Of a DNA stretch of 64,000 nt, positions 41,390 to 58,462 are shown piece by piece; within the stretch, counting starts at the first letter, position 1, and each line of letters starts with the position of its first letter. Made by a program: the position numbers and the translations under genes. Source of the DNA: an uncultured bacterium (lineage in GTDB: Bacteria; Hydrogenedentota; Hydrogenedentia; Hydrogenedentales; JAEUWI01); contig CAXBPH010000003.1 in the NCBI GenBank assembly GCA_963977445.1, positions 9,964 through 73,963 of the forward strand. Reading direction: 5' to 3'. Below the pieces are notes generated by a model. That model was not told where the DNA came from, did no database searches, and worked only from the letters and a program-made list of their open reading frames with translations.

Positions 41390-42490
41390 GTGCGAGTCCT
41401 CTTCAATGCCATGCAGGCAGGCAACCAGAGCGGCACCGGGCGCTATGTGGAGGAACTCCTCCCTGCCCTCGCGGCCCTGGAGGATGCGCCCGAGTTCACG
41501 GTCGTCTGGCCGGAAGACGTGCCCCTGCCCGCAGGAAGCGACCGGCTGGAAATACGCCTCCAGCCCCGGGGACTGCGCCACCGTTTGGCCCTGGAGCGAC
41601 GTCTTTACACGATGGCGGGGCAATTTGATGTCGTCCACTACCCCGCGACCATCGGCCCCCTGTGGCGCAAACCCAACCTGGTCATCACGGTACACGATTG
41701 TATTTTTCTCCACCACCCCGAGTGGTTCCGCAGAGAACGGGCTCTCTATTATCGATGGGCCGGAGCCTGGAGCATAGGGCGGGCCGCCCACCTTATTGCA
41801 GATTCAACGCATACCGCCCGGGATCTGGAGGCTTGGCTGTCCCCTCCCCCACCGAATATCACCACCATTCCCCTGGGCGTAAGCGAGTCCTTTCGGCCGC
41901 AGGGCGCGGATGCTGTGGAGCGCGTCCGGAAACGCTATCAACTTCCTGAACGCTTCTTCCTCTACGTCGGCACCCTCGAACCCCGCAAAAATCTTGCCCG
42001 TATCGTCCGCGCCTGGGATCAGGTTGCCGCCACCCTGCCCGAAGACCTGGTTATCGCGGGGCGGATCGGTTGGAAAACCGGCGAACTGGAGGGAGCCATA
42101 GCCGCTGCGACGCACCAGGACCGCATCCACTGCCCCGGCTTCATTGAGTCCTCCGACCTGCCCGCGCTACTCTCCGCCGCCCACGCCTTCGTCTGGCCCA
42201 GCCTCTACGAAGGCTTCGGCCTGCCCGTGCTGGAGGCCATGGCCTGCGGCACCCCGGTCATCACCGCCAACACCACGAGCCTCCTGGAAATTGCAGACGG
42301 CGCGGCTCTCACTGTAGATCCTCGGGATGAAGGAGCCCTCGCCCGGGCGTTAACCCAAATCTCGACGGATGGGGACCTTCACCGCACACTCGGAACGGCG
42401 GGACGTAAACGGGCTGATGAATTCACCTGGCAGCGTTGTGCCCAGGAAACCCGGGCGGTCTATGCCACGGTGGCCAACGCCCGCATCTGA
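41390..42490 (+). CDS. Glycosyltransferase family 4
   Basis: 'YVGTLEPRKN', 'PSLYEGFGLPVLEAMACGTPV'. Confidence 0.92.
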   Translation: MRVLFNAMQAGNQSGTGRYVEELLPALAALEDAPEFTVVWPEDVPLPAGSDRLEIRLQPRGLRHRLALERRLYTMAGQFDVVHYPATIGPLWRKPNLVITVHDCIFLHHPEWFRRERALYYRWAGAWSIGRAAHLIADSTHTARDLEAWLSPPPPNITTIPLGVSESFRPQGADAVERVRKRYQLPERFFLYVGTLEPRKNLARIVRAWDQVAATLPEDLVIAGRIGWKTGELEGAIAAATHQDRIHCPGFIESSDLPALLSAAHAFVWPSLYEGFGLPVLEAMACGTPVITANTTSLLEIADGAALTVDPRDEGALARALTQISTDGDLHRTLGTAGRKRADEFTWQRCAQETRAVYATVANARI

Positions 42491-42724
42491 GCCCCACACG
42501 GGCCATCCGGAGCCCTTGGGCGGACCCCAAGTCGTCCTGCATGCCGCCAACGTGGGATATCTACAGAAGAAACGAATCCCGGCCTATCACAGATTTTTTG
42601 CCGCAAGAGAACGCAAAGAGCGCAAAGGATTCACTTCTTTGCGATCGCTTGCGGCCAATACCATTGTCCCTGCGTTTATAATCGCCAAGGGTGTCGGCTT
42701 CAACGGTATTAGTCCATGAACCCC

Positions 42725-42775
42725 AAAAAAAAACGACGCGCTTCGGAGGGCCAAGGCTCTCACAAAGCGCGTCGT
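42725..42775 (-). terminator. Terminator of the Cys-repeat gene
   Basis: ACGACGCGCTT...AAGCGCGTCGT stem followed by about 9 T on the minus strand. Confidence 0.7.
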
Positions 42776-42798
42776 AGAATTACGAACCGATATTGAAA

Positions 42799-43608
42799 TT
42801 AGACGGCGTCGGAAACGATTTTCTTTCCGGTAACCGGGCAAACTTTGGCTTCACCTTCGGAAGAAGCGGCTTTGGCCTTGTCACACTCAGACTTGGCTTT
42901 GTCGCAGGTCTTGGCTTCGCCTTCGGAAGAAGCAGCCTTGGCCTTGTCACACTCAGCTTTCGCTTTGTCACAAGTCTTGGCTTCACCTTCGGAAGAAGCA
43001 GCCTTGGCCTTGTCACAAGCGGACTTGGGGCATTCGCCTTCAGAGGAAGCAGCCTTCGCTTTGTCACAGGTCTTGGCTTCACCTTCAGAAGAAGCGGCTT
43101 TGGCCTTGTCACACTCAGACGTGGCTTTGTCACAGGTCTTGGCTTCGCCTTCGGAAGAAGCAGCCTTGGCCTTGTCACAGGTCTTGGCTTCACCTTCGGA
43201 AGAAGCGGCCTTCGCTTTATCGCACTGCTTCGCTTCACCTTCGGAGGAAGCAGCCTTGGCTACCTTCGTCTTGCAGCAGCTGGACGCTTCACCTTCAGAG
43301 GAAGCCGCCAACGCCTTATCGAAGGTCGCCTGCCGGTCGGCGATCAGCTTGGCTTTCTTTTCGCATGGCTGAAAGGCATCTTCATTCGCTGCGGAAACCG
43401 TCTGCATGCCGAAGAAGGAGGCAACACTGTTCTTAGCACTCGTGATGGCGCAGGAACCTGATGCTCCGTTGTTCGCAACAACGCCAGCAGTCGCCACGCC
43501 GGATACGACGACCATAGCAGCAACGAAGGATGCCCATTTGCCTTTGTTACGTTTCGGTGCTTGAGCCGTTTCTTCGGTCACAAGCTCTTCCTGATGTTCT
43601 TCGTTCAT
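42799..43608 (-). CDS. Membrane-anchored Cys/Ala/Lys/Glu-rich repeat protein
   Basis: One N-terminal hydrophobic helix, nine AASSEGE-containing units, 16 Cys; GGAG RBS before ATG 43608; own terminator. Confidence 0.75.
   Translation of the reverse strand: MNEEHQEELVTEETAQAPKRNKGKWASFVAAMVVVSGVATAGVVANNGASGSCAITSAKNSVASFFGMQTVSAANEDAFQPCEKKAKLIADRQATFDKALAASSEGEASSCCKTKVAKAASSEGEAKQCDKAKAASSEGEAKTCDKAKAASSEGEAKTCDKATSECDKAKAASSEGEAKTCDKAKAASSEGECPKSACDKAKAASSEGEAKTCDKAKAECDKAKAASSEGEAKTCDKAKSECDKAKAASSEGEAKVCPVTGKKIVSDAV
42846..43305 (-). repeat. Coding tandem repeat (45-bp units with 21-bp interspersed units)
   Basis: Recurrent ...ttggcttcaccttcggaagaagcagccttggccttgtcaca..., varying mainly at codon third positions. 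Confidence 0.85.
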
Positions 43609-44127
43609 TGAATATTGCTCCACAAGTGTTTAAATAAGTTACCCATGCAATCTACACGATAAACATAGATTCAAAATTGACCCGATTTCATGTCAAAACC
43701 TGGAATTATTCGTAGGGTTCAGCATAACAAAAACTCCGCCACTTCGCAATCCTGTCGAAGCGCGCATTTCCACGAACCCGAAAGAAATGAAAACAACCTA
43801 ACCATCTCAATTTAAAGGCGTTACATAAAGTGTGTCTTTAACCCACAATCGCTGGAACGGCTACGTCGTCAGCTCACCAAGTTTCAATGCAGTGCAATTT
43901 GTCCGAAAAATCGCTGAAAACAGGTTGGTTGGCCGAGAACATTCATGAAATAACTGCCCCATAGGCCATGCCCCCACGAAGCCCCGACTCAACCGGTATT
44001 TTGCCGACTTCCGACGATGTTGCCGATGTTTTTGAGGAAGTGGTGGCGGAGTCTTGTGCGGGTGTCTTGGTGGCTTGGGTCGTTGTCGGTCATCGTCGGC
44101 TGCCTTTTAAGATTGCCGAAAAGGGGC

Positions 44128-44331
44128 CTACTCTGCGGGATGCGCAGCCGTGATCGCGACGGGCTCCGAGGCCTCGCGGCTCTTGCGCATGAGTTCCTGG
44201 TCGATCATGCCAAGTTCGGCGGCCAAACCGGCTGCGGCTACGGACAGGCAGGTTTCTTCCACTTCCGCCGCGTGGCGCATCCATTCGGGAAAAGGAAACG
44301 CATCACTTGTGCTATTCATATCCATGGTCAT
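44128..44331 (-). CDS. Small hypothetical protein coupled to the GNAT gene (possibly truncated)
   Basis: ATGA overlap with the upstream GNAT stop; 67 aa. Confidence 0.45.
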   Translation of the reverse strand: MTMDMNSTSDAFPFPEWMRHAAEVEETCLSVAAAGLAAELGMIDQELMRKSREASEPVAITAAHPAE

Positions 44332-44894
44332 AGGTGCCTTTCCAGAATTCTCTCTGCATTGTCGCGCGAAAGTTCAAAGTACGTCAAGTTTTCGAAATCC
44401 ACGTCAGGGCCCAACGGTGTCATCCAACACGCCCCTCCGTAGAAGGGTACGGACTGCGGCAAGGCATGTAGGCCCACTCGACCTCCAAAGCCTTCGTCCC
44501 AGCTTTGCCGGACGGCGCGCTCGAACAGGTGGGGACCAATCAGGCCGTATTTTCGCGTTTGCCCGATACCTGGAATGGTCCAGTTCCAAGGGGCGACTTC
44601 CAGGAAGTCTATATATACCAGCGGCTTGCCATGATCTTCGCCGAGTTGGGAGAAATGTGTCCCAGACTTGGTCAGCATGGCACCCTGCCATTCGTCGTCA
44701 CAGACCACGGCGAATCCAGATGCAGGAACCAGGCGCAGGTGCTGCGCCTTGGCCCGCCAGTTCCAGTTGAGGCTCTGGGGTCGCTCGGAATAGGGAAGAC
44801 CCGCGCGGGCTATTTCGAGAAGGATGCGGGAGCGTTCTGGAGTCCACACCGATTCCAGTGTCAGCAGGTCTTCAGGCGCGACGAGGAGGGCCAA
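44328..44894 (-). CDS. GNAT-fold acetyltransferase-like protein, probably 5'-truncated
   Basis: 'LVYIDFLEVAPWN...GLIGPHLFERAVRQS...GRVGLHALPQSVPFY'; TTG start without RBS and an in-frame stop just upstream. Confidence 0.6.
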   Translation of the reverse strand: MALLVAPEDLLTLESVWTPERSRILLEIARAGLPYSERPQSLNWNWRAKAQHLRLVPASGFAVVCDDEWQGAMLTKSGTHFSQLGEDHGKPLVYIDFLEVAPWNWTIPGIGQTRKYGLIGPHLFERAVRQSWDEGFGGRVGLHALPQSVPFYGGACWMTPLGPDVDFENLTYFELSRDNAERILERHL

Positions 44895-44913
44895 GCTGTT
44901 CTGCCTTCACGGC

Positions 44914-45297
44914 CTACTCACCCGTTGCGATGGCACTGGCGAAAGCGATTCCGCTCGAATAGCTAATACTCACATGCCAATCTAAGATACCGAGCTCATC
45001 AGAAAACTTTGCCACGTCATGATTTAGCCTTACATATGGAGCCCCGTTCTTCCCCCGAAGAATTTCTATTCCATGCCACGTTATTTTTCCAGAAAACCCA
45101 GTACCAAGAGCCTTTGCGATGGCCTCCTTTGCGGCGTATCTACCTGCATAGTAACGATAGTGGGCTGGGGGAGGGTCGGCGGCTTCTCGCTCGTCTATTG
45201 AGCAAAAGCAATTGACCCAGCTATTCGTACCTGAGTCAATTTCATTTCTTATACGTTGAATTCTTTCAATATCGATTCCGTGACCAATGATTCGCAT
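44914..45297 (-). CDS. acpS: AcpS-type 4'-phosphopantetheinyl transferase
   Basis: 'IIGHGIDIERIQRI', 'AGRYAAKEAIAKALGTG', 'GAPYV', 'VSISYS'. Confidence 0.88.
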   Translation of the reverse strand: MRIIGHGIDIERIQRIRNEIDSGTNSWVNCFCSIDEREAADPPPAHYRYYAGRYAAKEAIAKALGTGFSGKITWHGIEILRGKNGAPYVRLNHDVAKFSDELGILDWHVSISYSSGIAFASAIATGE

Positions 45298-45305
45298 GCA
45301 TCCCC

Positions 45306-47189
45306 CTATTTTATTTCTCGAACTACGATATCTCTCTTGTCAAGATCCAGGTCAACAGTTCCGCCTCCACGAGATTTCAACTCTCTCCAAACTTTGAAGC
45401 CCTGCAGGATAGCGCGTTCCCATTCTCCCGTTGTGCATGCTGACACCTCAAGATGAAGGACGGTATTCTTTATCATTCGTAACAATTCACTACTGACCGA
45501 CAATTTACCCTCTAGGAAGTTGTAGTCACGAGCGTAGGCAAAAATCATTGCCGATAGTGCCTCTTCCGTGACAATCGCCCTTGCACCATCTTCCACTTCG
45601 TCAACTTTCGGATCACTCTTTCGCTTCGCTGTGAACATTTTCCTGACGAGTGGAGACCAACCTAGAACCGCAGCGAAAGACAAATGGATTACATCGTGGA
45701 GTCCGTAACCATCGTTCTCGTAAGCGTTGTCAGTCAAGTCATCACCAAACTGCTGACCCTTGTACATCACCCGTATTTTTGGGTTGTTGAATTCGTCATG
45801 GTATGTGCTGAAATCGAGTGAAAAACTACGTGGAAATTGTTCATTTTCGGGATATCCTGCATCGAACGGAGTTCGCGAAGGTAACGTGCCCCACCGTTCA
45901 TCACATTTCGCCAAGTTAAGCTCGGCGATCTCCTTCAGATCGAGATTAAACTTCGTGGCGACGTTTGCCACATACCACAGCAAGTCTCCGAGTTCCTCGC
46001 TTAAGCGGTCCTTAAACAATTTATGCGTGTCACCGTCCCGAAGATATTTCTTGTATTCACTCAACAATTCACCGGATTCGCTTGCGAGGCCCAACAGAGG
46101 AATCGTTAGCGAAGACTCGTCCACACCGGGATTTTGATCTGTCCCGGCAACTTTCTCTTGGTATTTGCCCATATCCATGGCTCTTGTCTCCAGGTTCACC
46201 CCCGTACTCGATCGATTTTCTTCGTTTGAGCTGGTACGGCTGATTAATTCGTTTATGCCCCACTTGGGTGGGTACCAATAGTCGATTGGTTCTAAAATAG
46301 GCTTCAGCTTCTGCTTTATGCGACTTCGCCCTGATTTTCCGACGAATTCTGGATGTACAACTCGCGCGTACTTGTCTACTTCACAAAACAGGTTTTGGCA
46401 ATCAATCAATTGAAGCGGCCTTCCCCATAAGTCGGAAAAATCTATGCCCAGTCGATTAAATTCCTCATCCTGCCTCTCGGTCACCCACCGGATTATTTGT
46501 GCAGTATCCTTCTTTCCCGGGTTTAGAAAGCACTTCTGGATTCCATCGAGTGCTCCGGGGCCTGCGACCACAAAGTCCATTTCAGAGAAGTTAATGATGG
46601 TGCTGTAGTTCAAATCGGTAACATACTGATAGGCTAGAAAGTTGCCTATCCCAGGTGATGACCGCATTGATTCGAACGCCTCTTCCATGGACTCCGAATC
46701 AGCAATTCGTTTCGGTAGCTCCGAAGACATCATGTATTCAAGTAACTTAAGATGGTTCTGGTGTTTGAATGTTAGCGAAAATTTTCGGACGGAGGGCATT
46801 ATATAGGCTGCGGAATAGATCCGCTGGCCTCGCGTCATCGCCTGACTTAAGACACGGTCATATGCCTTGTATGAGTAATCGGCGTATGTGAGATGGCCAA
46901 GCTCATTCTCAAGTAGTTTCCATGTATCGATGCGATTGAAAAGTTTGAATAGAATTATGCGAAAAAACACTTCAGCTGGATGAGTCGGGAGGTCTTCGTT
47001 GTATATTACGTTCCTAATGAGATATTGGCTCACTCTGTCAGAGGCTCTGTAGGCGTTCGTGAATTTGTGGTTTTGAAGCACAGCGTCATCCGTCCACGGA
47101 AGAGGGCGCTTACTTATTCGTCGAAAGAAGATTCTCTGTCGCTCGGCGGCGAATTTCCAATACGTATCGTATACAGGAGTAGTTTTCAT
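45306..47189 (-). CDS. aGPT-Pplase1 / 5-hmdU DNA kinase-like helical domain fused to MazG-like NTP pyrophosphatase and MazG C-terminal domain
   Basis: N-terminal 'YWKFAAERQRIF...PWTDDAVLQNHKFTNAYRASDRVSQYLI', HhH-like 'PGIGNFLAYQYVTDLNYS', 'GPGALDG', 'DCQNLFCEVDKY'; C-terminal 'LGLASESGELLSEYKK...EELGDLLWYVANVA', 'GDDLTDNAY..DGY..HDVIH', 'DEVEDGARA...EE'. Confidence 0.8.
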   Translation of the reverse strand: MKTTPVYDTYWKFAAERQRIFFRRISKRPLPWTDDAVLQNHKFTNAYRASDRVSQYLIRNVIYNEDLPTHPAEVFFRIILFKLFNRIDTWKLLENELGHLTYADYSYKAYDRVLSQAMTRGQRIYSAAYIMPSVRKFSLTFKHQNHLKLLEYMMSSELPKRIADSESMEEAFESMRSSPGIGNFLAYQYVTDLNYSTIINFSEMDFVVAGPGALDGIQKCFLNPGKKDTAQIIRWVTERQDEEFNRLGIDFSDLWGRPLQLIDCQNLFCEVDKYARVVHPEFVGKSGRSRIKQKLKPILEPIDYWYPPKWGINELISRTSSNEENRSSTGVNLETRAMDMGKYQEKVAGTDQNPGVDESSLTIPLLGLASESGELLSEYKKYLRDGDTHKLFKDRLSEELGDLLWYVANVATKFNLDLKEIAELNLAKCDERWGTLPSRTPFDAGYPENEQFPRSFSLDFSTYHDEFNNPKIRVMYKGQQFGDDLTDNAYENDGYGLHDVIHLSFAAVLGWSPLVRKMFTAKRKSDPKVDEVEDGARAIVTEEALSAMIFAYARDYNFLEGKLSVSSELLRMIKNTVLHLEVSACTTGEWERAILQGFKVWRELKSRGGGTVDLDLDKRDIVVREIK

Positions 47190-47237
47190 ATTAACCGGCC
47201 GAAAGTATACGAGTACAGTGGAGTCATTTTTGTCTTT

Positions 47238-48062
47238 CTAAAAATCGTCATGAATAGGCTCGGAAACTGTGCTCGTCACAGATTTGCAAAGTATTTTGTT
47301 AGAGCGCGTGATCAAGTCACGTGCATTGCGTACCCCCCAAGGAAATTGTTTTGAATCCTTAATTCTGGCTGGGCCTTTATCAATTTCGGCATGTGTGGAG
47401 ACACAGGTGAGCGAACCGACGGTTAGGCCAGCTCGCTCTGCCACAAACGCCTGAAGTTGCCCCAAACCGATTAGATTGCCAAGGCACCGAGATATGTACG
47501 TGTGGTTACGGTACATTGCTGTAAGCATCAAGCCCTTGTTTGGATGACATTTAAAGCTCAAAAAACTGAGGCATTGTCCCCCCCATCGACTACGCCCATC
47601 CTCCAAGGGATCGTAAACCGCTAGCTCATATGCCGACTTGAACTTCTGACCACCATTCTCGCGTTCTTGTAGCTTACCGATCAGCTGTTCTAGTGGATTG
47701 TATGTCTTGCCGAGCCTAGTCTGATGCCTGGTCATTCGCTCAAAGTACCTACCCCAGCGCCGGGTCTTCGTCAGTCTATCGAACGCTTCATGGTATTTCT
47801 CGTAGAACACCGGAGCCCCGTGCTGATTGTAGAGTGATTGGGGAAAAATCGTGTTACAGACCGTGGATATGGGGTAGCAATCGTACTTTCGTAGAAAATC
47901 GTCTACCTCTGAAATGATTTCATTGTCAGTTGAATCGAACGATACGGGATTTTCTACATCAACAATAACGTTGTATCCCTCATCATTGTGCTTCATGATC
48001 TCCATTGCAGCCGCTACCCACGCTCGCGCACAACTCTTCTGTGTCGGGATGGCGATGTACAT
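47238..48062 (-). CDS. Divergent thymidylate-synthase-fold protein
   Basis: 'GGQCLSFLSF' (catalytic Cys position), 'LMLTAMYRNH', 'LGNLIGL', 'GSLTCVSTHAEI' in TS motif order. Confidence 0.72.
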   Translation of the reverse strand: MYIAIPTQKSCARAWVAAAMEIMKHNDEGYNVIVDVENPVSFDSTDNEIISEVDDFLRKYDCYPISTVCNTIFPQSLYNQHGAPVFYEKYHEAFDRLTKTRRWGRYFERMTRHQTRLGKTYNPLEQLIGKLQERENGGQKFKSAYELAVYDPLEDGRSRWGGQCLSFLSFKCHPNKGLMLTAMYRNHTYISRCLGNLIGLGQLQAFVAERAGLTVGSLTCVSTHAEIDKGPARIKDSKQFPWGVRNARDLITRSNKILCKSVTSTVSEPIHDDF

Positions 48063-48074
48063 AGAAAGGTCTCC

Positions 48075-48722
48075 CTAATGCGTAATAAATGCGGAAAAGA
48101 TTCGCGACCCGAGATAACGTTTGCTCAACCAGGCGTAGCCATGAAGGCCCCAGGATTCACCCCAACTGTTTCTGATAGCGATATACTTTTCGCTGTTTTT
48201 CGTAGCTGTTGCGACGGCAACAACAGCGTGTCGTCGAACCGGGTCGATAGGCTCAGTTGAATCAACGATTCCAACGTTGTCCGGGGTATAGAACGCATCT
48301 GAGAACGACATCGCGAGGACGACGGGCTTGTCGGTTTGGATGCAGTCCCAAACGGCGTCAAATGTGGCGGTTAAGGCGCTAGTATGGCATTGGAAAAGTT
48401 GCCCTACGTTGTTGGGAGGCTTCCAGTGCGAAATTGGGCTTGGCAATGCCTTGAGGTAGGGCCAGGCGAGTTCGTTCGGTTGCCCGTCCCCAGTTAATGC
48501 AGAGCATACCCCCGGAATGGAAACACCCAAATCTGGAGAGCTTCTCTCCCACTTTATCGCGTAGTAGTATAGGTACTCACACGACAAGGGTTGCCAATTC
48601 CTCTCCAGTGCGGCGGAATGTGCGTCGCTCGTGGCGAACGCCAGGCATGTCGGGCGCGCTCCTTGATCGCGAGCGCTGCCAAAATATGGTCGTAGGTCGT
48701 GACGGATAATCATCGAACTCAT
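48075..48722 (-). CDS. Papain-like (C1) cysteine peptidase, no signal peptide
   Basis: 'RDQGARPTCLAFA' (Gln, Cys), 'RHAVVAV' (His), 'IRNSWGESWGLHGYAW' (Asn). Confidence 0.88.
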   Translation of the reverse strand: MSSMIIRHDLRPYFGSARDQGARPTCLAFATSDAHSAALERNWQPLSCEYLYYYAIKWERSSPDLGVSIPGVCSALTGDGQPNELAWPYLKALPSPISHWKPPNNVGQLFQCHTSALTATFDAVWDCIQTDKPVVLAMSFSDAFYTPDNVGIVDSTEPIDPVRRHAVVAVATATKNSEKYIAIRNSWGESWGLHGYAWLSKRYLGSRIFSAFITH

Positions 48723-49732
48723 GGGCGACTCAACATTGCTTGGCGTTGAGCTGGCAGGAGGCCGGTTTGTAGTGGTCCTGTCAAGTTTACATCAAATTCG
48801 AGCGACTGTAGAGATTCATCATCTGAGAGCCATGGTCGCTGTTCACGAAGATTCACGTGACCGAGTGCCGACTGCTCCGGTTCAGCCACGATCTTACGTT
48901 CGACAATACTACCGATTGCATTTTCAGTCGAGCGGGCCTCTCGGATGTCCTCAACTATTTTGAGGCCGACTTTGGAGAGACTGTCAAACGACCACATGTA
49001 CCCTGATGAAGCGTGTTCGATCAGCTCGAGAATCACGATGTCGTGCGCGCTTCCTTCAATTAGGAGCCTTTGATCGCCCATGCCAAGCACCCATATATCC
49101 GCATACCATGATTCTGGGGTGTGCTGTTTGGTGAGCTGCTGCTTGATAGATTTTGGTTGGGTTTTGAGCAGGGAGTCTCGTACTGATTTCGAAATCGCAT
49201 TGTGCTTGAGGAGCGCATGACAAGTCGCCGCATAGCTTGACCCCATCCGTAAGGCCAATTGGTAGACTATTTTCGGAGACGTTAGGTCTGAGCTCGCCCA
49301 CCCTTGTTGACCCATGTGGTGCGTGATTAGCCATTTCGGTGTAAGCAGTTCGGAGGCAAACGCATTTGCCTGCAGTTCTATGAGATCAAGAGCTGCCCCG
49401 CTCTCAAACGGAGTTCGGTTTAGCCTGGATTCGTCATCTAGACTAGACGAGTGCCCCATGACCGCGTGACCCAATTCGTGTGCTGCCGTGAAGCGCTGTA
49501 CGGAAAGGGGGCGTTGTGTGGTCAACAGAACTCCAGATCCATTTTCTTCCAAATAGCATCCGAGCAGCCCCTTCATCGGTTGGAACATGACAGGTATGTC
49601 GAGAGCTGCGAGAAGTCCAAACACATCGATGCGTCCCACCCCACTCTTTACCTTTTTTTTGACACCATGGCTAGCATGTAATCGGTTAGCAGCAAGAGCC
49701 GCCTCGAGTATAGCCTTACGAACGTCTGGCAT
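48719..49732 (-). CDS. ImmA/IrrE-family Zn metallopeptidase with a C-terminal chagasin (I42)-like domain
   Basis: 'QRFTAAHELGH', 'ELQANAFASELL'; C-terminal 'LELIEHASSGYMW...IGS...LREQRPW'. Confidence 0.82.
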   Translation of the reverse strand: MPDVRKAILEAALAANRLHASHGVKKKVKSGVGRIDVFGLLAALDIPVMFQPMKGLLGCYLEENGSGVLLTTQRPLSVQRFTAAHELGHAVMGHSSSLDDESRLNRTPFESGAALDLIELQANAFASELLTPKWLITHHMGQQGWASSDLTSPKIVYQLALRMGSSYAATCHALLKHNAISKSVRDSLLKTQPKSIKQQLTKQHTPESWYADIWVLGMGDQRLLIEGSAHDIVILELIEHASSGYMWSFDSLSKVGLKIVEDIREARSTENAIGSIVERKIVAEPEQSALGHVNLREQRPWLSDDESLQSLEFDVNLTGPLQTGLLPAQRQAMLSRP

Positions 49733-49735
49733 AGG

Positions 49736-50116
49736 TCAGCCCCCTTTTTGCGCTTTCCTCGATTTCAAGAATTCTGCGAATCTGGCGAGTTCGCTGCGAT
49801 CTTCCGGGGCCAATTCAGATACCTGCCGTGCCAGATGAGCGACTTCCTTGTCAACTGGATGCGTGTCAGCGGTTTCACCGGTAAAAAAGTTCAGAGACCT
49901 CCCGTAGAGTTCGGCTAATTTCTTGAGTTCAAACACTTCAACTTTCCTCAGCCCTGCTTCCATCAAAGATAGCGCGGAACGAGAAGTACCTACTTTCGTG
50001 GCTATTTCGTTCTGGGAGAATCCAACATACTCTCGGGCTTCACGTAGCCGGTCACCAAGTACCTTTCTATCGCTATCACCTTCAACTTTTTTATTGTTGG
50101 GAGCTCTACTACTCAT
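49736..50116 (-). CDS. XRE-family HTH transcriptional regulator
   Basis: 'LGDRLREAREYVGFSQNEIATKVGTSRSALSLMEAGLRKV'; ATGA overlap with the upstream gene. Confidence 0.9.
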   Translation of the reverse strand: MSSRAPNNKKVEGDSDRKVLGDRLREAREYVGFSQNEIATKVGTSRSALSLMEAGLRKVEVFELKKLAELYGRSLNFFTGETADTHPVDKEVAHLARQVSELAPEDRSELARFAEFLKSRKAQKGG

Positions 50117-50433
50117 TTGCTTCCCTTTCTTTTTTCCTCTTCTTGGCACAATTTATCTATACGCAGCATCATATCGTCAATTGCTTCATCAACACTTTGA
50201 TAGCCGCCTTTTCGTATAGTCTTGTCTGGAGGTAGTCGAAAACCAACGATTGGCTCGATGGCTAACAAAGTGCTTACGACGGCAAAGGAGTCCAAAAGTG
50301 GCTCCCAAACCTTGCGCAACAGAGCCCCCTCATCCACAATCTCGTCAAGCTTGTCAGTCAAAACTGCCCGAATTTCGCAAGAAGTCAAATGAACATCTTC
50401 GTCGATTTGAAACGCTGTGGATGTGTTTGCCAT
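50113..50433 (-). CDS. Acyl-carrier-protein-like small acidic protein
   Basis: 106 aa; 'LLDSFAVVSTLLAIEPIVGFRLP...SVDEAIDDM' resembles the ACP DS(Ppant)-helix II-loop-helix IV pattern; AGGAG RBS; PPTase in the same operon. Confidence 0.6.
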   Translation of the reverse strand: MANTSTAFQIDEDVHLTSCEIRAVLTDKLDEIVDEGALLRKVWEPLLDSFAVVSTLLAIEPIVGFRLPPDKTIRKGGYQSVDEAIDDMMLRIDKLCQEEEKRKGSK

Positions 50434-50458
50434 ACCGAATCTCCTGTGCTACTTGGTT

Positions 50459-50487
50459 AGGATACCAAAATTCAGTTGGAAAATCAA
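50459..50487 (-). promoter_or_regulatory. Candidate sigma-70 promoter of the island operon
   Basis: Minus strand TTGATT-17bp-TATCCT with TG extension, 25 bp before the ACP-like start. Confidence 0.55.
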
Positions 50488-50500
50488 ACACAAAATATCA

Positions 50501-50523
50501 ATATGTTAGATTTTCTAACATAT
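50501..50523. promoter_or_regulatory. Perfect palindrome, candidate XRE operator
   Basis: ATATGTTAGA-TTT-TCTAACATAT. Confidence 0.6.
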
Positions 50524-50525
50524 GG

Positions 50526-50607
50526 TATAGCCCAGGGTTTTGCTTGTTCGCGCTTGGGGCGTGAACTTGCTGCGCCCTGGGCTATAGTGTGTCACCCCGT
50601 TGGGGCT
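50526..50607. repeat. REP-like palindromic element (AGCCCAGGG...CCCTGGGCT family)
   Basis: TATAGCCCAGGG (50526-37) / CCCTGGGCTATA (50575-86) plus CCCCGTTGGGG hairpin; same motif family as 63691-64000. Confidence 0.75.
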
Positions 50608-50850
50608 ATTCAGATCGCCCTGTACGGATTCGCCGAAGAATGACACTTCGCCCGAAGTGGGCGCCAGCAACCCCATGAGCACCTTGATGGTCGTGCTCTT
50701 ACCCGCGCCATTGGGCCCGAGAAGGCCGAAGGCGGCCCCACGCTTTATTTGGAGATTGAGGCCGTGGACACCATCTCCGTGTTCGTAGGTTTTTACGAGT
50801 TCTGAGATTTCGACCACCGACTCGGTCTTCACCGGGGCCTGTTTATCCAT
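50608..50850 (-). pseudogene. 5' fragment of an ABC transporter ATP-binding gene
   Basis: 'FGLLGPNGAGKSTTIKVLMGLLAPTSGEV' Walker A; frame then runs into the REP with no Q-loop, signature or Walker B. Confidence 0.8.
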
Positions 50851-51001
50851 AACCTGCACGAAAACAACTCCCCTTGTTCTTCGCTGCAGAACCTGCGTGC
50901 AGCGGGAAAACTGCCAACGAAATAGCCCGATACGCTATAGTACAAGACATTAATCTATCTGACAATCCCCAAAGATTAACCGGAAAGCCCAATCAAAATT
51001 C

Positions 51002-52330
51002 ATGGCCGAAGATCTATTTGAAAATGCCGCCGCTGAGCGGATGCGGAAGGAAGCCCCGCTGGCCCGCCGTATCGCCCCCCGCACCCTCGATGACTTTGTG
51101 GGGCAGGAGCATATCCTCGGGCATGGCAAACTCTTGCGTCGCGCCATCGAAGCCGATCGCATCACCTCCCTCCTCCTTTATGGTCCCCCGGGCACGGGCA
51201 AGACCGCGCTGGCGCGTATTATCGCCATGCGGACCAAATCGGCCTTTGAACCCTTAAATGCGGTGACGTCGGGCGTGAAAGAGCTGCGGGAACTCCTGGC
51301 CCAGGCCAAGCAACGGCGCATCCACCAACAGAAGCGCACCATCGTTTTCGTGGACGAAATTCACCGATTCAATAAGGCCCAGCAGGACGCCCTCCTCCCC
51401 GATGTGGAGAATGGCAACATCACCATGATCGGTGCCACCACGGAGAACCCCTTCTTCTCCGTCGTCGCGCCTCTCCTCTCCCGTTCCCAGATTTTTGAAT
51501 TCAAACGTCACACGGAAGAAGCCCTCGTCGGCTTACTGCGCCGCGCCCTCACACATCCCGAGCTGGGGATGGACCCCGAGACCATCACGGTAGACGACGA
51601 CGCCTTCGCTCATATCGCGCGCTATGCCGAAGGGGATGTGCGCCGTTCCCTCAATGCCTTGGAAGTGGCCCTGCTTACCACGCCGGTGGTCGATGAGAAG
51701 ATTCACATCACCGTGGAAGAAGCCCGGGAATCCATCCAGCGCAAACTCCTCCACTACGATGGCACGGGCGATGGCCACTATGACGCGGCCTCGGCTTTTA
51801 TCAAATCCATGCGGGGGAGCAATCCCGATTCGGCCCTCTATTGGATGGCCCGCATGCTGGAAGCCGGTGAAACGCCGCGCTTTGTGGCGCGACGCATCTG
51901 CATCGCCGCGTCGGAAGATGTGGGCAATGCCGACCCCATGGCGCTGGTGCTGGCGAACGCCGCCTTCCAGACCTGTGAGTTCATCGGCATGCCCGAAGCG
52001 CGCATCATGCTCGCCCAGGCCGTGACCTACATCGCCGCCGCCCCCAAGAGCAATGCGTCCTACGCGGCCATCGACGCCGCCATCGCGGCCGTGCGGGAAG
52101 AAAAAACCACCGAAATTCCCAAACACCTCCAGGATGCCCACTACAAGGGGGCCAAACGACTGGGTCACGGGGCCAACTATCAGTATGCCCACGATTTTGA
52201 AGACAACTACGTCACCCAGGACTACGGCATCCCCCGGGGCACCTTCTATCAGCCCACGAAAAATGGCAAGGAAGCCGAAATAAAGGCCTGGATGGATGAA
52301 CTCGACGCCCGGGACCGGGGAGAGAACTAG
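51002..52330 (+). CDS. rarA: Replication-associated recombination protein A (RarA/MgsA)
   Basis: 'GPPGTGKT', '[13 protein letters not shown]', 'GATTENP', '[10 protein letters not shown]', 'ASEDVGNAD'. Confidence 0.95.
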
Positions 52331-57271: not shown

Positions 57272-58462
57272 CTACCGAAGGCGAAACTCACCAATCAATC
57301 CAGGCCGTCGCGCAAGCAAACTCTCTAAGTGACTATCTGCCCACATTTCGATGCGAAGTGCCGAATCTGATTGGTTGTGGTTCTCGATTATTTGAATAGC
57401 ATCTGTGCTGAATCTGCCGGACGTCGCAATAATGTGAACATCAACTCGCGGCGGCTCCCAGAGTTTCATTTGCTCTCTCAAAGTCGCAATTTCCTTAGCA
57501 CCGACGCTTTTCGACAGCCAATGCTTGCATTGAATAATCACTCGCAGGCGAAACGTTCCGCCTAGTTTGTCGAGAAACACTCTTTGGCACGAAAGATCCC
57601 GTCCTCTGTCTGACGCGTTCGTCTTAGTAAGCCACTCCGCATTTTCGTAACCTTCGGTTTGCGATATCAGATTGAAAACCAATCTCTCGAAATCATCCTC
57701 ATCGATGGCTTCCCAGTTTAGCTTGGTTGCGATTTCTCCGACGGGCCTAGCCTTAACTAACTCACCCAAATCGTCGACGGCCACCGGTAATGGGTCGGAA
57801 CTACCGTATAAAATCTCCGTCATCCCCGCGTCGACAGCTGGCCAATCGTGCTTTATTATGTCTCGAAGATCGCCAATCATACCGTAATGAAGGTGCCTTT
57901 TCAGATCACCCCATCTCGGAGGACGCTTGGCACTACTTCCCAAGATAGTATCGATTCTGGAAACACTGGAGACCAATACTTCCCAGTCGTCACCGTCGAC
58001 AGAACCGTTAGCCTCGAGTTTGCTCGGATAGTCTGTGCGAAGACGCGCCAGCGCTAAATTGGCGATACGTATCTCTTCAAGTAATGCGTGACGAAATACC
58101 GTTCTCCGTGACCTATTCAACCGATAACGGTACTCTTTGAGGTCTTTCTCTGGCGAGAATATGTGCTCATCTATTATTACGGCACTCTCAAAGTCGCCAA
58201 TCTCCATGGCGTCAAATCTGAATTGTCCGATTTCATTTAGCTCTAAGAGTGAATCTGGCATTGTCCATCCATCAATCTTAGGAAGAGCTTCACGTACTTG
58301 ACGATAATCTCGGCAGCAATCATCGTACACTCCGTCGGTCATGTCCCCGAACGAAACACTTTCAGGAATCATCGATTTGATCTTTTCCCACAAAGCTTCT
58401 AACTTCACAAGATTGGCTTCGGTTGCTTCAAATTGCTTCAATGCATCGTTCAATGAGCTCAT
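57272..58462 (-). CDS. Mrr-like (PD-(D/E)xK) restriction endonuclease domain protein with a long helical N-terminus
   Basis: 'DFERLVFNL', 'DRGRDL', 'IIQCKHW', 'ATSGRFS'; more AT-rich than flanks. Confidence 0.8.
   Translation of the reverse strand: MSSLNDALKQFEATEANLVKLEALWEKIKSMIPESVSFGDMTDGVYDDCCRDYRQVREALPKIDGWTMPDSLLELNEIGQFRFDAMEIGDFESAVIIDEHIFSPEKDLKEYRYRLNRSRRTVFRHALLEEIRIANLALARLRTDYPSKLEANGSVDGDDWEVLVSSVSRIDTILGSSAKRPPRWGDLKRHLHYGMIGDLRDIIKHDWPAVDAGMTEILYGSSDPLPVAVDDLGELVKARPVGEIATKLNWEAIDEDDFERLVFNLISQTEGYENAEWLTKTNASDRGRDLSCQRVFLDKLGGTFRLRVIIQCKHWLSKSVGAKEIATLREQMKLWEPPRVDVHIIATSGRFSTDAIQIIENHNQSDSALRIEMWADSHLESLLARRPGLIGEFRLR

Follow-up and report, generated by a model that had tools for sequence, protein, structure and literature searches.

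The 64,000-nt stretch of DNA analyzed here, from contig CAXBPH010000003.1 of an uncultured bacterium (the window; all positions are window coordinates unless a locus is named), contains an operon of seven genes. They encode a small carrier-protein-like protein, an XRE-family helix-turn-helix (HTH) regulator, an M78 metallopeptidase with a chagasin-type domain, a papain-family (C1) peptidase, a thymidylate synthase (TS)-like enzyme, a protein that joins HMUDK_hel, MazG and MazG_C domains, and an AcpS-type 4'-phosphopantetheinyl transferase (PPTase). With a probability of about 0.55, we favor reading this operon as an antiviral system that is kept repressed and whose targets are the pool of pyrimidine nucleotides or the thymidine of DNA; the locus would have been acquired horizontally, it would repress itself, and its effector half would modify or divert pyrimidine (deoxy)nucleotides. 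The reading is built on the gene content, on the conservation of catalytic-type residues, on the linkage of the genes across phyla and on the defense genes that neighbor them; the biochemical steps discussed below are all inferred from these, as are their trigger and the phage phenotype.

An initial annotation of the window had proposed the seven genes as an undescribed, inducible nucleotide- or DNA-modification module; its observation is confirmed by the analyses reported here, and its interpretation is supported in part. A nucleotide-modifying defense operon under an HTH/M78 switch can be assembled from domain families defined by others, and a related operon has been validated, whereas the chemistry is without a characterized counterpart. 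In the literature searched we found no described counterpart of the carrier/PPTase pair or, in the variant seen in the window, of the papain/chagasin pair, and no description of an operon combining a carrier and PPTase with a TS-like enzyme and HMUDK_hel-MazG, though earlier comparative-genomics work may mention the neighborhood. If the favored reading is correct, the family would be among the most widespread defense-type operons still awaiting experiment (at least 595 species-level genomes and at least six phyla), one in which a TS-like enzyme and a phage-type base-hypermodification domain work with a dedicated carrier and phosphopantetheinyl transferase. Its study could reveal a new class of antiviral nucleotide and a new role for phosphopantetheine, as well as the role of the aGPT-Pplase clade-1/HMUDK_hel domain, which is also borne by phages, and in the papain/chagasin variant nature would offer a switch built of protease and inhibitor that is joined to a sensor peptidase. 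The window copy is one intact, ordinary member of the family, and the interest rests in the family.

Layout and conservation of the seven-gene block

Seven intact open reading frames (ORFs), all on the minus strand, fill positions 44914-50433 (Table 1). Coordinates and sequence agree with the co-oriented arrangement described in the initial annotation, with ATGA overlaps at 50113-50116 (stop of the carrier-like gene and start of the XRE gene) and at 48719-48722 (stop of the M78 gene and start of the C1 peptidase gene), and gaps of 3, 12, 48 and 8 bp at the remaining junctions. The annotation had also remarked that the operon is more AT-rich than its surroundings, and GC content is indeed 0.44-0.53 over 45000-50499 compared to 0.57-0.62 in both flanks, with sharp edges, such that the seven genes are one compact, compositionally foreign block. 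The block seems to have inserted into an ABC transporter gene or next to one. In the ORF at 50515-50859 (minus strand, 114 aa) an ABC ATPase is represented by its N-terminal portion alone (ABC_tran positions 2-66 of 137), and the tail of the ORF enters the hairpin at the island edge; the ORF may have been interrupted by the island, and the rest of the ATPase was not seen in six-frame translations of 43500-44960, past the other end of the island.

Table 1. Coordinates of the genes, domains and upstream elements of the operon in the window
Feature	Position	Strand	Length	Details
Imperfect hairpin	50526-50586	-		12-bp perfect stem TATAGCCCAGGG...CCCTGGGCTATA (inverted repeat), just beyond the palindrome
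Leader/promoter region	50434-50500	-		By eye: TTGATT, 17 nt, TATCCT; AGGAGA 8 nt before ATG
Gene 1, carrier-protein-like	50113-50433	-	106 aa	
Gene 2, XRE-family HTH	49736-50116	-	126 aa from ATG	Start in ORF list is an upstream GTG, 50149; Pfam HTH_31 5.4e-12, HTH_3 2.7e-11; PADLOC capH 2.8e-15
Gene 3, M78 + chagasin-type domain	48719-49732	-	337 aa	
M78 (IrrE/ImmA/CapP-type) zinc-metallopeptidase domain of gene 3	49211-49600	-		Pfam Peptidase_M78 9.2e-11, residues 45-174; PADLOC capP 4.7e-16
Chagasin-family (I42) inhibitor domain, C-terminal in gene 3	48794-49108	-		Motifs SGYxW, IGG, RPW conserved
Gene 4, C1 (papain-family) cysteine peptidase	48075-48722	-	215 aa	Pfam Peptidase_C1 1.7e-11
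Gene 5, TS-like	47238-48062	-	274 aa	
Gene 6, HMUDK_hel + MazG + MazG_C	45306-47189	-	627 aa	
HMUDK_hel (aGPT-Pplase clade-1-like helical domain) of gene 6	46344-47180	-		Pfam 2.5e-114, residues 4-282 of 627
MazG all-alpha NTP pyrophosphohydrolase domain of gene 6	45894-46094	-		Pfam MazG 5.4e-6
MazG_C domain of gene 6	45315-45872	-		Pfam MazG_C 8.3e-70
Gene 7, AcpS-type 4'-phosphopantetheinyl transferase	44914-45297	-	127 aa	Pfam ACPS 2.9e-16

In order to follow these genes in other genomes, the 627-aa gene 6 protein was used as an anchor in a scan of one genome per species, which returned at least 595 relatives; at least 8000 homologs of the protein exist at 60-69% identity. Locus counts given here refer to the best 80 of the at least 595 relatives, with parts recognized by hidden Markov models built from clusters of the loci's own ORFs, and since several of the 80 loci are cut by contig ends the counts are lower bounds. 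HMUDK_hel was present in all 80 loci, the TS-like gene in 74, MazG_C in 72, XRE and M78 in 67 each, a small carrier-like ORF just upstream of XRE in 66, AcpS in 57, a dCTP-deaminase/dUTPase-fold gene in 28 and the C1 peptidase in 5. The initial annotation had offered a failure of the genes to co-occur in other genomes as grounds for abandoning its proposal; they do co-occur, with all seven core parts (carrier, XRE, M78, TS-like, HMUDK_hel, MazG/MazG_C and AcpS) held by 51 of the 80 loci. The family is found in six or more phyla, including Planctomycetota, Cyanobacteriota, Pseudomonadota, Bacteroidota, Acidobacteriota and Chloroflexota. A single gene encodes HMUDK_hel fused to MazG-MazG_C in 12 loci, the two being split elsewhere, and AcpS is co-oriented in 18 loci and opposed in 39. 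The Geminicoccaceae locus L057 (7785-16182 of that locus) exemplifies the rearrangement, running from HMUDK_hel through MazG-MazG_C, one or two unassigned ORFs and an AcpS gene on the opposite strand to carrier, XRE, M78/chagasin, C1, TS-like and DCD genes, so that the 5' block and the TS-like gene lie across AcpS from HMUDK_hel and MazG_C. That linkage is kept through fusion, fission, inversion and permutation in at least six phyla is strong evidence that the genes function jointly.

The deaminase-like gene encodes a protein of about 280 aa (Pfam DCD 2.1e-13 for L025:10304-11143) and starts at 10288 in L001, 10336 in L002, 10279 in L004, 3342 in L005, 2082 in L021 and 15403 in L057, with 22 further loci also carrying it. 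Horizontal movement of the system is indicated by two observations: the core system of locus L035 resides on a 79.7-kb plasmid (Muricoccus radiodurans plasmid unnamed3), and the tree of the HMUDK domain contains cross-phylum placements, for example a Gemmatimonadota copy within an alphaproteobacterial clade. Both point to horizontal spread.

Predicted nucleotide enzymes and the putative carrier pair

Profile searches recovered the domains that the initial annotation had called, the acyl carrier protein (ACP)-like and TS-like matches being weak or under cut-off, with the exception of its kinase-like part, which is HMUDK_hel and not a P-loop 5-hydroxymethyldeoxyuridine (5-hmdU) kinase. The gene 5 protein is tentatively assigned by profile and structure comparisons to the thymidylate synthase superfamily. 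No Pfam family matched it (Thymidylat_synt included), and the NCBIfam model of archaeal thymidylate synthase, thy_syn_methano, matched at 1.7e-10 and 40.8 bits, under its cut-off of 174.55. Using a profile of 59 TS-like sequences, the best match in the PDB was the CMP 5-hydroxymethylase 5b6d (E 0.0032), which we take to be MilA of mildiomycin biosynthesis. Look-alike clusters in the Atlas are named thymidylate synthase (score 0.97, TM 0.79-0.84). Cys164 is invariant in all 59 sequences (consensus FPCLQ) and is aligned to the Cys of 5b6d and to the PCH of E. coli ThyA; the hhalign comparison with ThyA itself had a probability of 0.55%, too weak to map the residues that bind folate or specify the base.

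The N-terminal domain of the gene 6 protein, HMUDK_hel, carries an invariant IDCQNLFCE motif with the adjacent residues C269-E270, and C264, C269 and E270 are each invariant in 16 sequences. Its relatives in phages amount to 500 records at 27-37% identity, including phages of Salmonella (164) and Pseudomonas (69); some of these relatives are annotated, and where named they are aGPT-Pplase clade 1. The clade-2 transferase of phages, aGPT-Pplase2, uses a Cys with a neighboring Glu and allows addition of a thiol, beta-mercaptoethanol, at the C5 methylene (PMC8989533). The Cys-Glu of HMUDK_hel recalls, as a resemblance, the essential Cys and neighboring Glu of that transferase. No clade-2 aGPT-Pplase was detected in the operon, as HMUDK_hel was the only family of this kind matched at E<=0.1 in Pfam and the phage relatives are annotated as clade 1. 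A kinase identity for HMUDK_hel was considered and rejected: despite the Pfam name only the helical domain is present, whereas the proven 5-hmdU DNA kinase (5-HMUDK) is a P-loop enzyme (PMC8989533), and no P-loop kinase family in Pfam matched any of the seven proteins.

The MazG domain keeps E371, E398, E399 and D402 as invariant acidic positions (16 sequences), the PDB profile search matched 5ie9 at 9e-4, and Foldseek gave a probability of 1.00 to MazG structures with a TM by target of 0.65. The C-terminal domain is labeled 'predicted nucleotide kinase (MazG-C)' in PMC13092281, and NCBI names agree; any kinase role in this operon would fall to MazG_C, on what is a prediction by others. The listed PDB matches of the whole 627-aa model in Foldseek are all to the MazG part, with none to HMUDK_hel or MazG_C, and no NCBIfam family describes the three-domain protein.

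Gene 1 is the weakest domain call of the seven. Its family comprises 414 unnamed homologs with no Pfam domain, among which the 40 sequences of the window type have invariant W43, P45, L47, D48 and S49, with Ser49 being the candidate attachment site for phosphopantetheine. The AlphaFold2 (AF2) model of the 106-aa protein (mean predicted local distance difference test, pLDDT, 73.9) places S49 at the start of the second of four helices. Nine of the ten top Foldseek matches of this model in the PDB are carrier proteins, aminoacyl-carrier proteins and polyketide ACPs included, at a best E of 0.49 that is not significant; ACPs are also on top of the PDB profile search of the window type (E 0.17-0.8), and an NCBIfam ACP model gave a weak match (E 0.013). 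The carrier reading becomes credible because a dedicated PPTase lies in the same operon, the AcpS protein passing the cut-offs of both NCBIfam models TIGR00516 acpS (64.3 bits, cut-off 59.8) and TIGR00556 (72 bits, cut-off 45.35).

Across the family the small ORF just upstream of XRE occurs as two types, a common type in 61 loci and the window type in 5. In the common type a Ser within a GFDS-like motif is invariant in 45 sequences, and the corresponding motif of the window type is PLLDS. We treat the two as positional analogues that both look carrier-like. Four loci have AcpS and no carrier, all of them cut by a contig end. The conserved set of the 80 loci contains no adenylating enzyme, acyltransferase, ketosynthase, condensing enzyme, thioesterase or exporter gene; with no adenylating enzyme, acyltransferase or ketosynthase, nothing conventional is present to load or unload the carrier, and the carrier/PPTase pair points to a chemistry as yet unknown.

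The regulatory half of the operon

The initial annotation had placed the genes under one promoter/palindrome, and upstream of gene 1 is a perfect 10+3+10 palindrome, ATATGTTAGA-aaa-TCTAACATAT, at 50501-50523, with arms that are 100% complementary. By our own estimate, chance alone would yield approximately 0.003 such palindromes in a stretch of 221 bp. The palindrome is a candidate operator to which the XRE repressor may bind; a search with the same settings found no matching palindrome upstream of the operon in five relatives (L001, L002, L004, L023 and L057). The promoter picked by eye between palindrome and gene 1 (TTGATT/TATCCT) scores under the 9-of-12 threshold of the consensus scan and is not listed there. 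RNA folding of 50434-50620 gave z = -5.26, and the hairpin just beyond the palindrome lies where the truncated ABC ATPase ORF meets the island; this hairpin could act as a terminator or insulator or mark the island's end.

The XRE gene adjoins the gene of an M78 peptidase with the HExxH signature, in which HELGH forms residues 85-89 and H85, E86 and H89 are conserved. A gene 3 family profile, made from 56 full-length relatives out of 1665 representatives found, matched in its N-terminal part an IrrE ortholog (8slm, 4e-10), IrrE (3dte, 8e-9) and CapP (7t5t, 2.3e-8), and all 56 aligned relatives matched Peptidase_M78. In the CapH/CapP, IrrE/DdrO and ImmA/ImmR pairs an HTH repressor is cleaved by a DNA-damage-activated M78 metallopeptidase, which places immune operons under control (10.1101/2022.04.27.489752; 10.64898/2026.05.16.725639); CapP cleaves CapH in response to single-stranded DNA (ssDNA) (10.64898/2026.05.16.725639; 10.1101/2022.04.27.489752), which CapP/IrrE are thought to sense via a GAF domain, and XRE/M78 pairs also control prophages and integrative and conjugative elements (ICEs) (10.1101/2022.04.27.489752). 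The regulatory half of our operon is best read by analogy with these pairs, and the initial annotation had likened it to CapH/CapP. The sequence resemblance to that type holds, whereas two of its features are absent. CapP and IrrE have a C-terminal GAF domain (10.1101/2022.04.27.489752), and the window M78 protein has no GAF match, with positions 209-315 matching chagasin-family inhibitors instead. Additionally, capH and capP are placed upstream of their operon and divergently from it (10.1101/2022.04.27.489752), and here the pair is co-oriented and internal, as genes 2 and 3 of seven after the carrier gene, an internal position also seen in related loci. Without the GAF domain and the divergent placement, control by DNA damage is an analogy only, and the cue may be something other than ssDNA.

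The C-terminal domain of the window gene 3 protein matched Inhibitor_I42 at 5.8e-5 and 23.7 bits, under the Pfam cut-off of 27.2; assignment to I42 is made at the level of the family, where 48 of the 56 aligned relatives matched Inhibitor_I42 and positions 209-315 of the profile matched amoebiasin-2 (3m86, 2.1e-14), a bacterial ICP (2wgn, 5.6e-10) and chagasin (2nnr, 9.8e-8). The neighboring C1 peptidase has the complete Gln/Cys/His/Asn catalytic set (RDQ..TCLAF, RHAV and RNSWG); H165, N185, S186 and W187 are invariant in the alignment, and the Cys is kept in every row that covers its column. Its homologs number 1658 at E<=1e-3, with the top 120 nearly all 214-216 aa long. At 215 aa there is no room for a prodomain or signal peptide, and as neither is present the enzyme is probably cytoplasmic. 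In known pairs of chagasin/ICP (MEROPS I42) with C1 peptidases an I42-type domain likewise accompanies a C1 peptidase with an intact catalytic set; the difference here is that the inhibitor is fused to an M78 metallopeptidase and that both lie within an operon of nucleotide enzymes. We read the pair as a putative latent protease checked by the fused inhibitor, which would add a second proteolytic step to the switch.

This papain/chagasin arrangement is a minority variant of 5 of the 80 loci. All five have the window-type carrier and the chagasin-fused M78 protein, and the peptidase is found in none of the 61 common-type loci. The features of the variant therefore travel together, and the two forms differ from each other in the entire 5' half of the operon, as one block; since the peptidase co-varies with the type of carrier, the carrier is a candidate cleavage target. 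A single origin of the variant was considered and is not supported. In the HMUDK-domain tree (from which one locus, taken to be L021, was left out by a 240-residue filter) the variant is not one clade and needs four changes, at least three of them forced by supported branches, with the window placed on a long unresolved branch (0.68). Either the regulatory block has been exchanged between operons or the tree is unable to resolve its history.

The M78-chagasin fusion is itself a large family, with 215 representatives at E<=1e-30 (among proteins P0361-P0510), most of them aligned end to end and some at approximately 30% identity. It looks larger than 5 of 80 loci would suggest, such that the regulatory block may serve other effector operons as well. 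The common-type M78 proteins (e.g., L070:6180-7070) end in a conserved domain of about 130 aa without a Pfam match, with a consensus including PLxVADxHW and GRLFRAxRPG, which may be where the common form senses its cue; similarity of this domain to chagasin was rejected (hhalign probability 0.1%).

Defense context, proposed mechanism and alternatives

The initial annotation had put the system forward as a candidate for an undescribed one. PADLOC-DB 2.0.0 indeed lacks a model for five of the seven proteins (0 families at E<=0.1 for the carrier, the C1 peptidase, the TS-like enzyme, HMUDK_hel-MazG and AcpS); the operon is nevertheless a member of a widespread family, parts of which have been flagged as predicted defense and which has a validated relative. 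DefensePredictor lists aGPT-Pplase, MazG, MazG-C and dUTPase domains among its predicted, unvalidated systems, and DS-4, which combines a TS, an adenylate-kinase-like protein, an HMUDK_hel protein, TIR and Nmad2, is one of its 42 validated defense units, assayed with a plasmid in E. coli and a panel of phages (PMC13092281). Among the relatives found, DS-4 is the only one with an experimental anti-phage phenotype. Compared by domain family, the two operons share a TS or TS-like enzyme, an HMUDK_hel protein and a (predicted) nucleotide kinase. They differ in that DS-4 has a P-loop kinase where the window locus has MazG-MazG_C, that the adenylate-kinase-like, TIR and Nmad2 families of DS-4 have no match among the seven window proteins in Pfam, and that DS-4 is without the XRE/M78 switch, the carrier, the PPTase and the papain/chagasin pair. 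A further likeness is to the defense enzymes of the nucleotide pool, dCTP deaminase and dGTPase, both through the deaminase-like gene of the 28 loci and through the proposed outcome of starved or poisoned phage DNA synthesis. Those are single-enzyme systems, whereas this operon would be a multi-step pathway with a carrier, and its window copy has no deaminase-like gene.

We also examined what surrounds the operon in other genomes. Within 4.5 kb, 66 loci have 327 flank ORFs of at least 200 aa, of which the first 102 (20 loci) were scanned with PADLOC together with 15 ORFs of the window. Thirteen of the 20 loci, against a background rate that was not controlled, have at least one flank ORF that PADLOC recognizes at E<=1e-10. 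Among the systems matched are type I restriction-modification (L003 and L007), DISARM (L010 and L013), QatABC (L013), Gabija (L015), AbiE with DpdF and IetA (L018) and dGTPase (L019). In the window, an ORF at 57272-58462 (minus strand), about 7 kb from the island, has an Mrr_cat restriction-endonuclease domain (2.3e-12) and matches the PADLOC candidate PDC-M58A (4.5e-11). The association with defense genes is suggestive, and it fits what others have reported.

Taken together, these results suggest a mechanism of the following kind. Bound to the palindrome, the XRE repressor would hold the operon nearly silent until a cue of stress or infection activated the M78 metallopeptidase and the repressor was cleaved, after the manner of IrrE/DdrO, ImmA/ImmR and CapP/CapH. 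The deaminase/dUTPase-fold enzyme of many relatives could supply dUMP. The invariant Cys of the TS-like enzyme would attack C6 of a uracil or cytosine nucleotide, leading to a one-carbon group at C5, and the HMUDK_hel-MazG-MazG_C protein would process the nucleotide, with MazG hydrolyzing a (d)NTP, MazG_C possibly phosphorylating, and the aGPT-Pplase-like domain acting on the C5 substituent via its invariant Cys-Glu. AcpS would produce the holo carrier, and the phosphopantetheine thiol would be the acceptor or carrier of the activated C5-methylene intermediate. The net effect would be a thymidine pool that is depleted or poisoned, or DNA that is marked, and phage replication would stop. In the minority variant, the chagasin-type inhibitor stands where the M78 proteins of the family usually end in another domain, and a papain-type peptidase gene is added.

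One bolder form of this scheme concerns the carrier. As no usual loading enzyme is present and addition of a thiol to the C5 methylene has been published (PMC8989533), the phosphopantetheine thiol may itself be the nucleophile. The protein would then not be an acyl carrier at all, and its thiol would be thioether-linked to the C5-methylene of a pyrimidine nucleotide, giving a protein-tethered modified nucleotide. That methylene would be made by the TS-like enzyme or by the aGPT-Pplase-like domain, and MazG/MazG_C would in reality act on the tethered nucleotide, which would itself be the antiviral agent or be converted to it directly. In the papain/chagasin variant, the protease would additionally provide a licensing step of a kind not described for any defense system. 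We regard this proposal, the boldest made here, as speculative and unlikely.

Several observations weigh against the favored reading. No PADLOC model exists for the effector genes, so defense is not established for the family. Of the 20 loci scanned, 7 have no such PADLOC match in their flanks, several of the matches found are to generic models (kinase, HEAT repeat, E1-E2 and cysteine desulfurase), and the Mrr_cat ORF is the only defense-type match among the 15 window ORFs. The carrier signals are weak and no more than convergent, with no Pfam PP-binding match, the Foldseek E of 0.49 and PDB profile E values of 0.09-0.3; the window-type and common-type carriers are not detectably homologous (hhalign probability 1.5%, with only the DS motif aligned), and 13 carrier-bearing loci showed no AcpS in the flank examined. 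HMUDK_hel was not confidently modeled by AF2, the mean pLDDT of the 627-aa protein being 61, with HMUDK_hel mostly below 50 and MazG_C at about 80-92. Furthermore, the other aGPT-Pplase paralogue was dispensable in the published reconstitution in vitro (PMC8989533); we infer that this paralogue is of clade 1, although that paper does not give it this name. The GAF-less M78 protein and the operon-internal position of the XRE/M78 pair, set out above, also count here, as does the absence from the whole window of the deaminase-like gene that lies 3' of AcpS in the nearest relatives.

The same domains could instead serve to hypermodify DNA belonging to the host or to some mobile element, with thymidine replaced or decorated for protection from nucleases or as a mark of self and no phage being killed; phages achieve such replacement by means of TS-type hydroxymethylases, MazG/dUTPase and aGPT-Pplase enzymes. 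The phage relatives of HMUDK_hel described above, some annotated as aGPT-Pplase clade 1, the foreign GC of the island and the use of XRE/M78 pairs by prophages and ICEs (10.1101/2022.04.27.489752) would suit such a role, and TS-type enzymes with (d)NTP pyrophosphatases, which accompany these pathways, are the established phage route to 5-hmdU DNA (PMC8989533; PMC7824862). Phage thymidine hypermodification employs a dUMP hydroxymethylase, a P-loop 5-HMUDK and the amino-acid:DNA transferase aGPT-Pplase2 (PMC8989533), and the window locus resembles it in having a TS-like enzyme and an aGPT-Pplase/HMUDK_hel member with a conserved Cys-Glu. However, the P-loop 5-HMUDK and the clade-2 transferase, which are necessary and sufficient for the first step (PMC8989533), are both absent here, as are pyridoxal phosphate (PLP), radical S-adenosylmethionine (SAM) and flavin adenine dinucleotide (FAD) tailoring enzymes among the seven proteins in Pfam. 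The locus is moreover cellular, predicted to be repressed and associated with defense islands rather than being a phage replication module, and it adds a carrier and PPTase. The 80 loci share no conserved nuclease that could act as the reader of a mark, the flanks scanned showed no genes for phage structure, replication or integration, and tight repression fits a toxic effector better than a constitutive mark. On this balance we consider modification of self or element DNA unlikely.

Two further explanations divide the evidence differently. A dedicated carrier with its own PPTase is a hallmark of natural-product pathways, and the operon might be a small cluster for a nucleoside secondary metabolite that begins with a CMP/dUMP hydroxymethylase-like step, continues with carrier-bound intermediates and ends in an extracellular product or a signal. 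The best solved relative of the TS-like enzyme, a CMP 5-hydroxymethylase, and the aminoacyl-carrier and polyketide proteins among the top Foldseek matches of the carrier are consistent with this, while the conserved set has none of the adenylating, condensing, ketosynthase, thioesterase or exporter genes of such a cluster, for which an XRE/M78 switch and frequent defense neighbors would also be unusual; we hold a metabolite cluster to be distinctly unlikely. The initial annotation had alternatively suggested an attack on 5-hmdU-containing phage DNA. Widened to DNA with hypermodified thymidine, this idea would have the aGPT-Pplase-like domain bind the modified base, and an adduct made with the carrier's thiol or by the enzymes would block replication. 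To our knowledge, phage lambda lacks 5-hmdU. DS-4 was assayed against coliphages such as lambda (PMC13092281), which speaks against this idea, and the TS-like, MazG and deaminase-like genes (the last in 28 of 80 loci) point to the nucleotide pool rather than to pre-existing DNA, with no conserved DNA-binding or nuclease domain in the operon. Such an attack would draw on the invariant Cys-Glu pair kept by HMUDK_hel and on the known action of the aGPT-Pplase family on 5-hmdU-derived bases in DNA polymers, where a thiol adds to the C5 methylene (PMC8989533), and we judge it very unlikely.

In line with the initial annotation, no phage structural gene or integrase was seen among the 15 flank ORFs searched with Pfam or the 15 searched with PADLOC. 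No tRNA was found in the window and no Rfam match in 42000-52000. Directly 3' of AcpS is a 188-aa ORF (44328-44894, minus strand) with flank-like GC and no Pfam or PADLOC family, which sits where close relatives have the dCTP-deaminase-like gene and has no match to that family. Farther along the flank, a 274-aa ORF at 42799-43623 (minus strand), also without a Pfam or PADLOC family and overlapped by an ORF on the opposite strand, is composed in large part of repeats at 42822-43321, with seven to nine copies of imperfect 45-66-nt tandem units at 60-90% identity.

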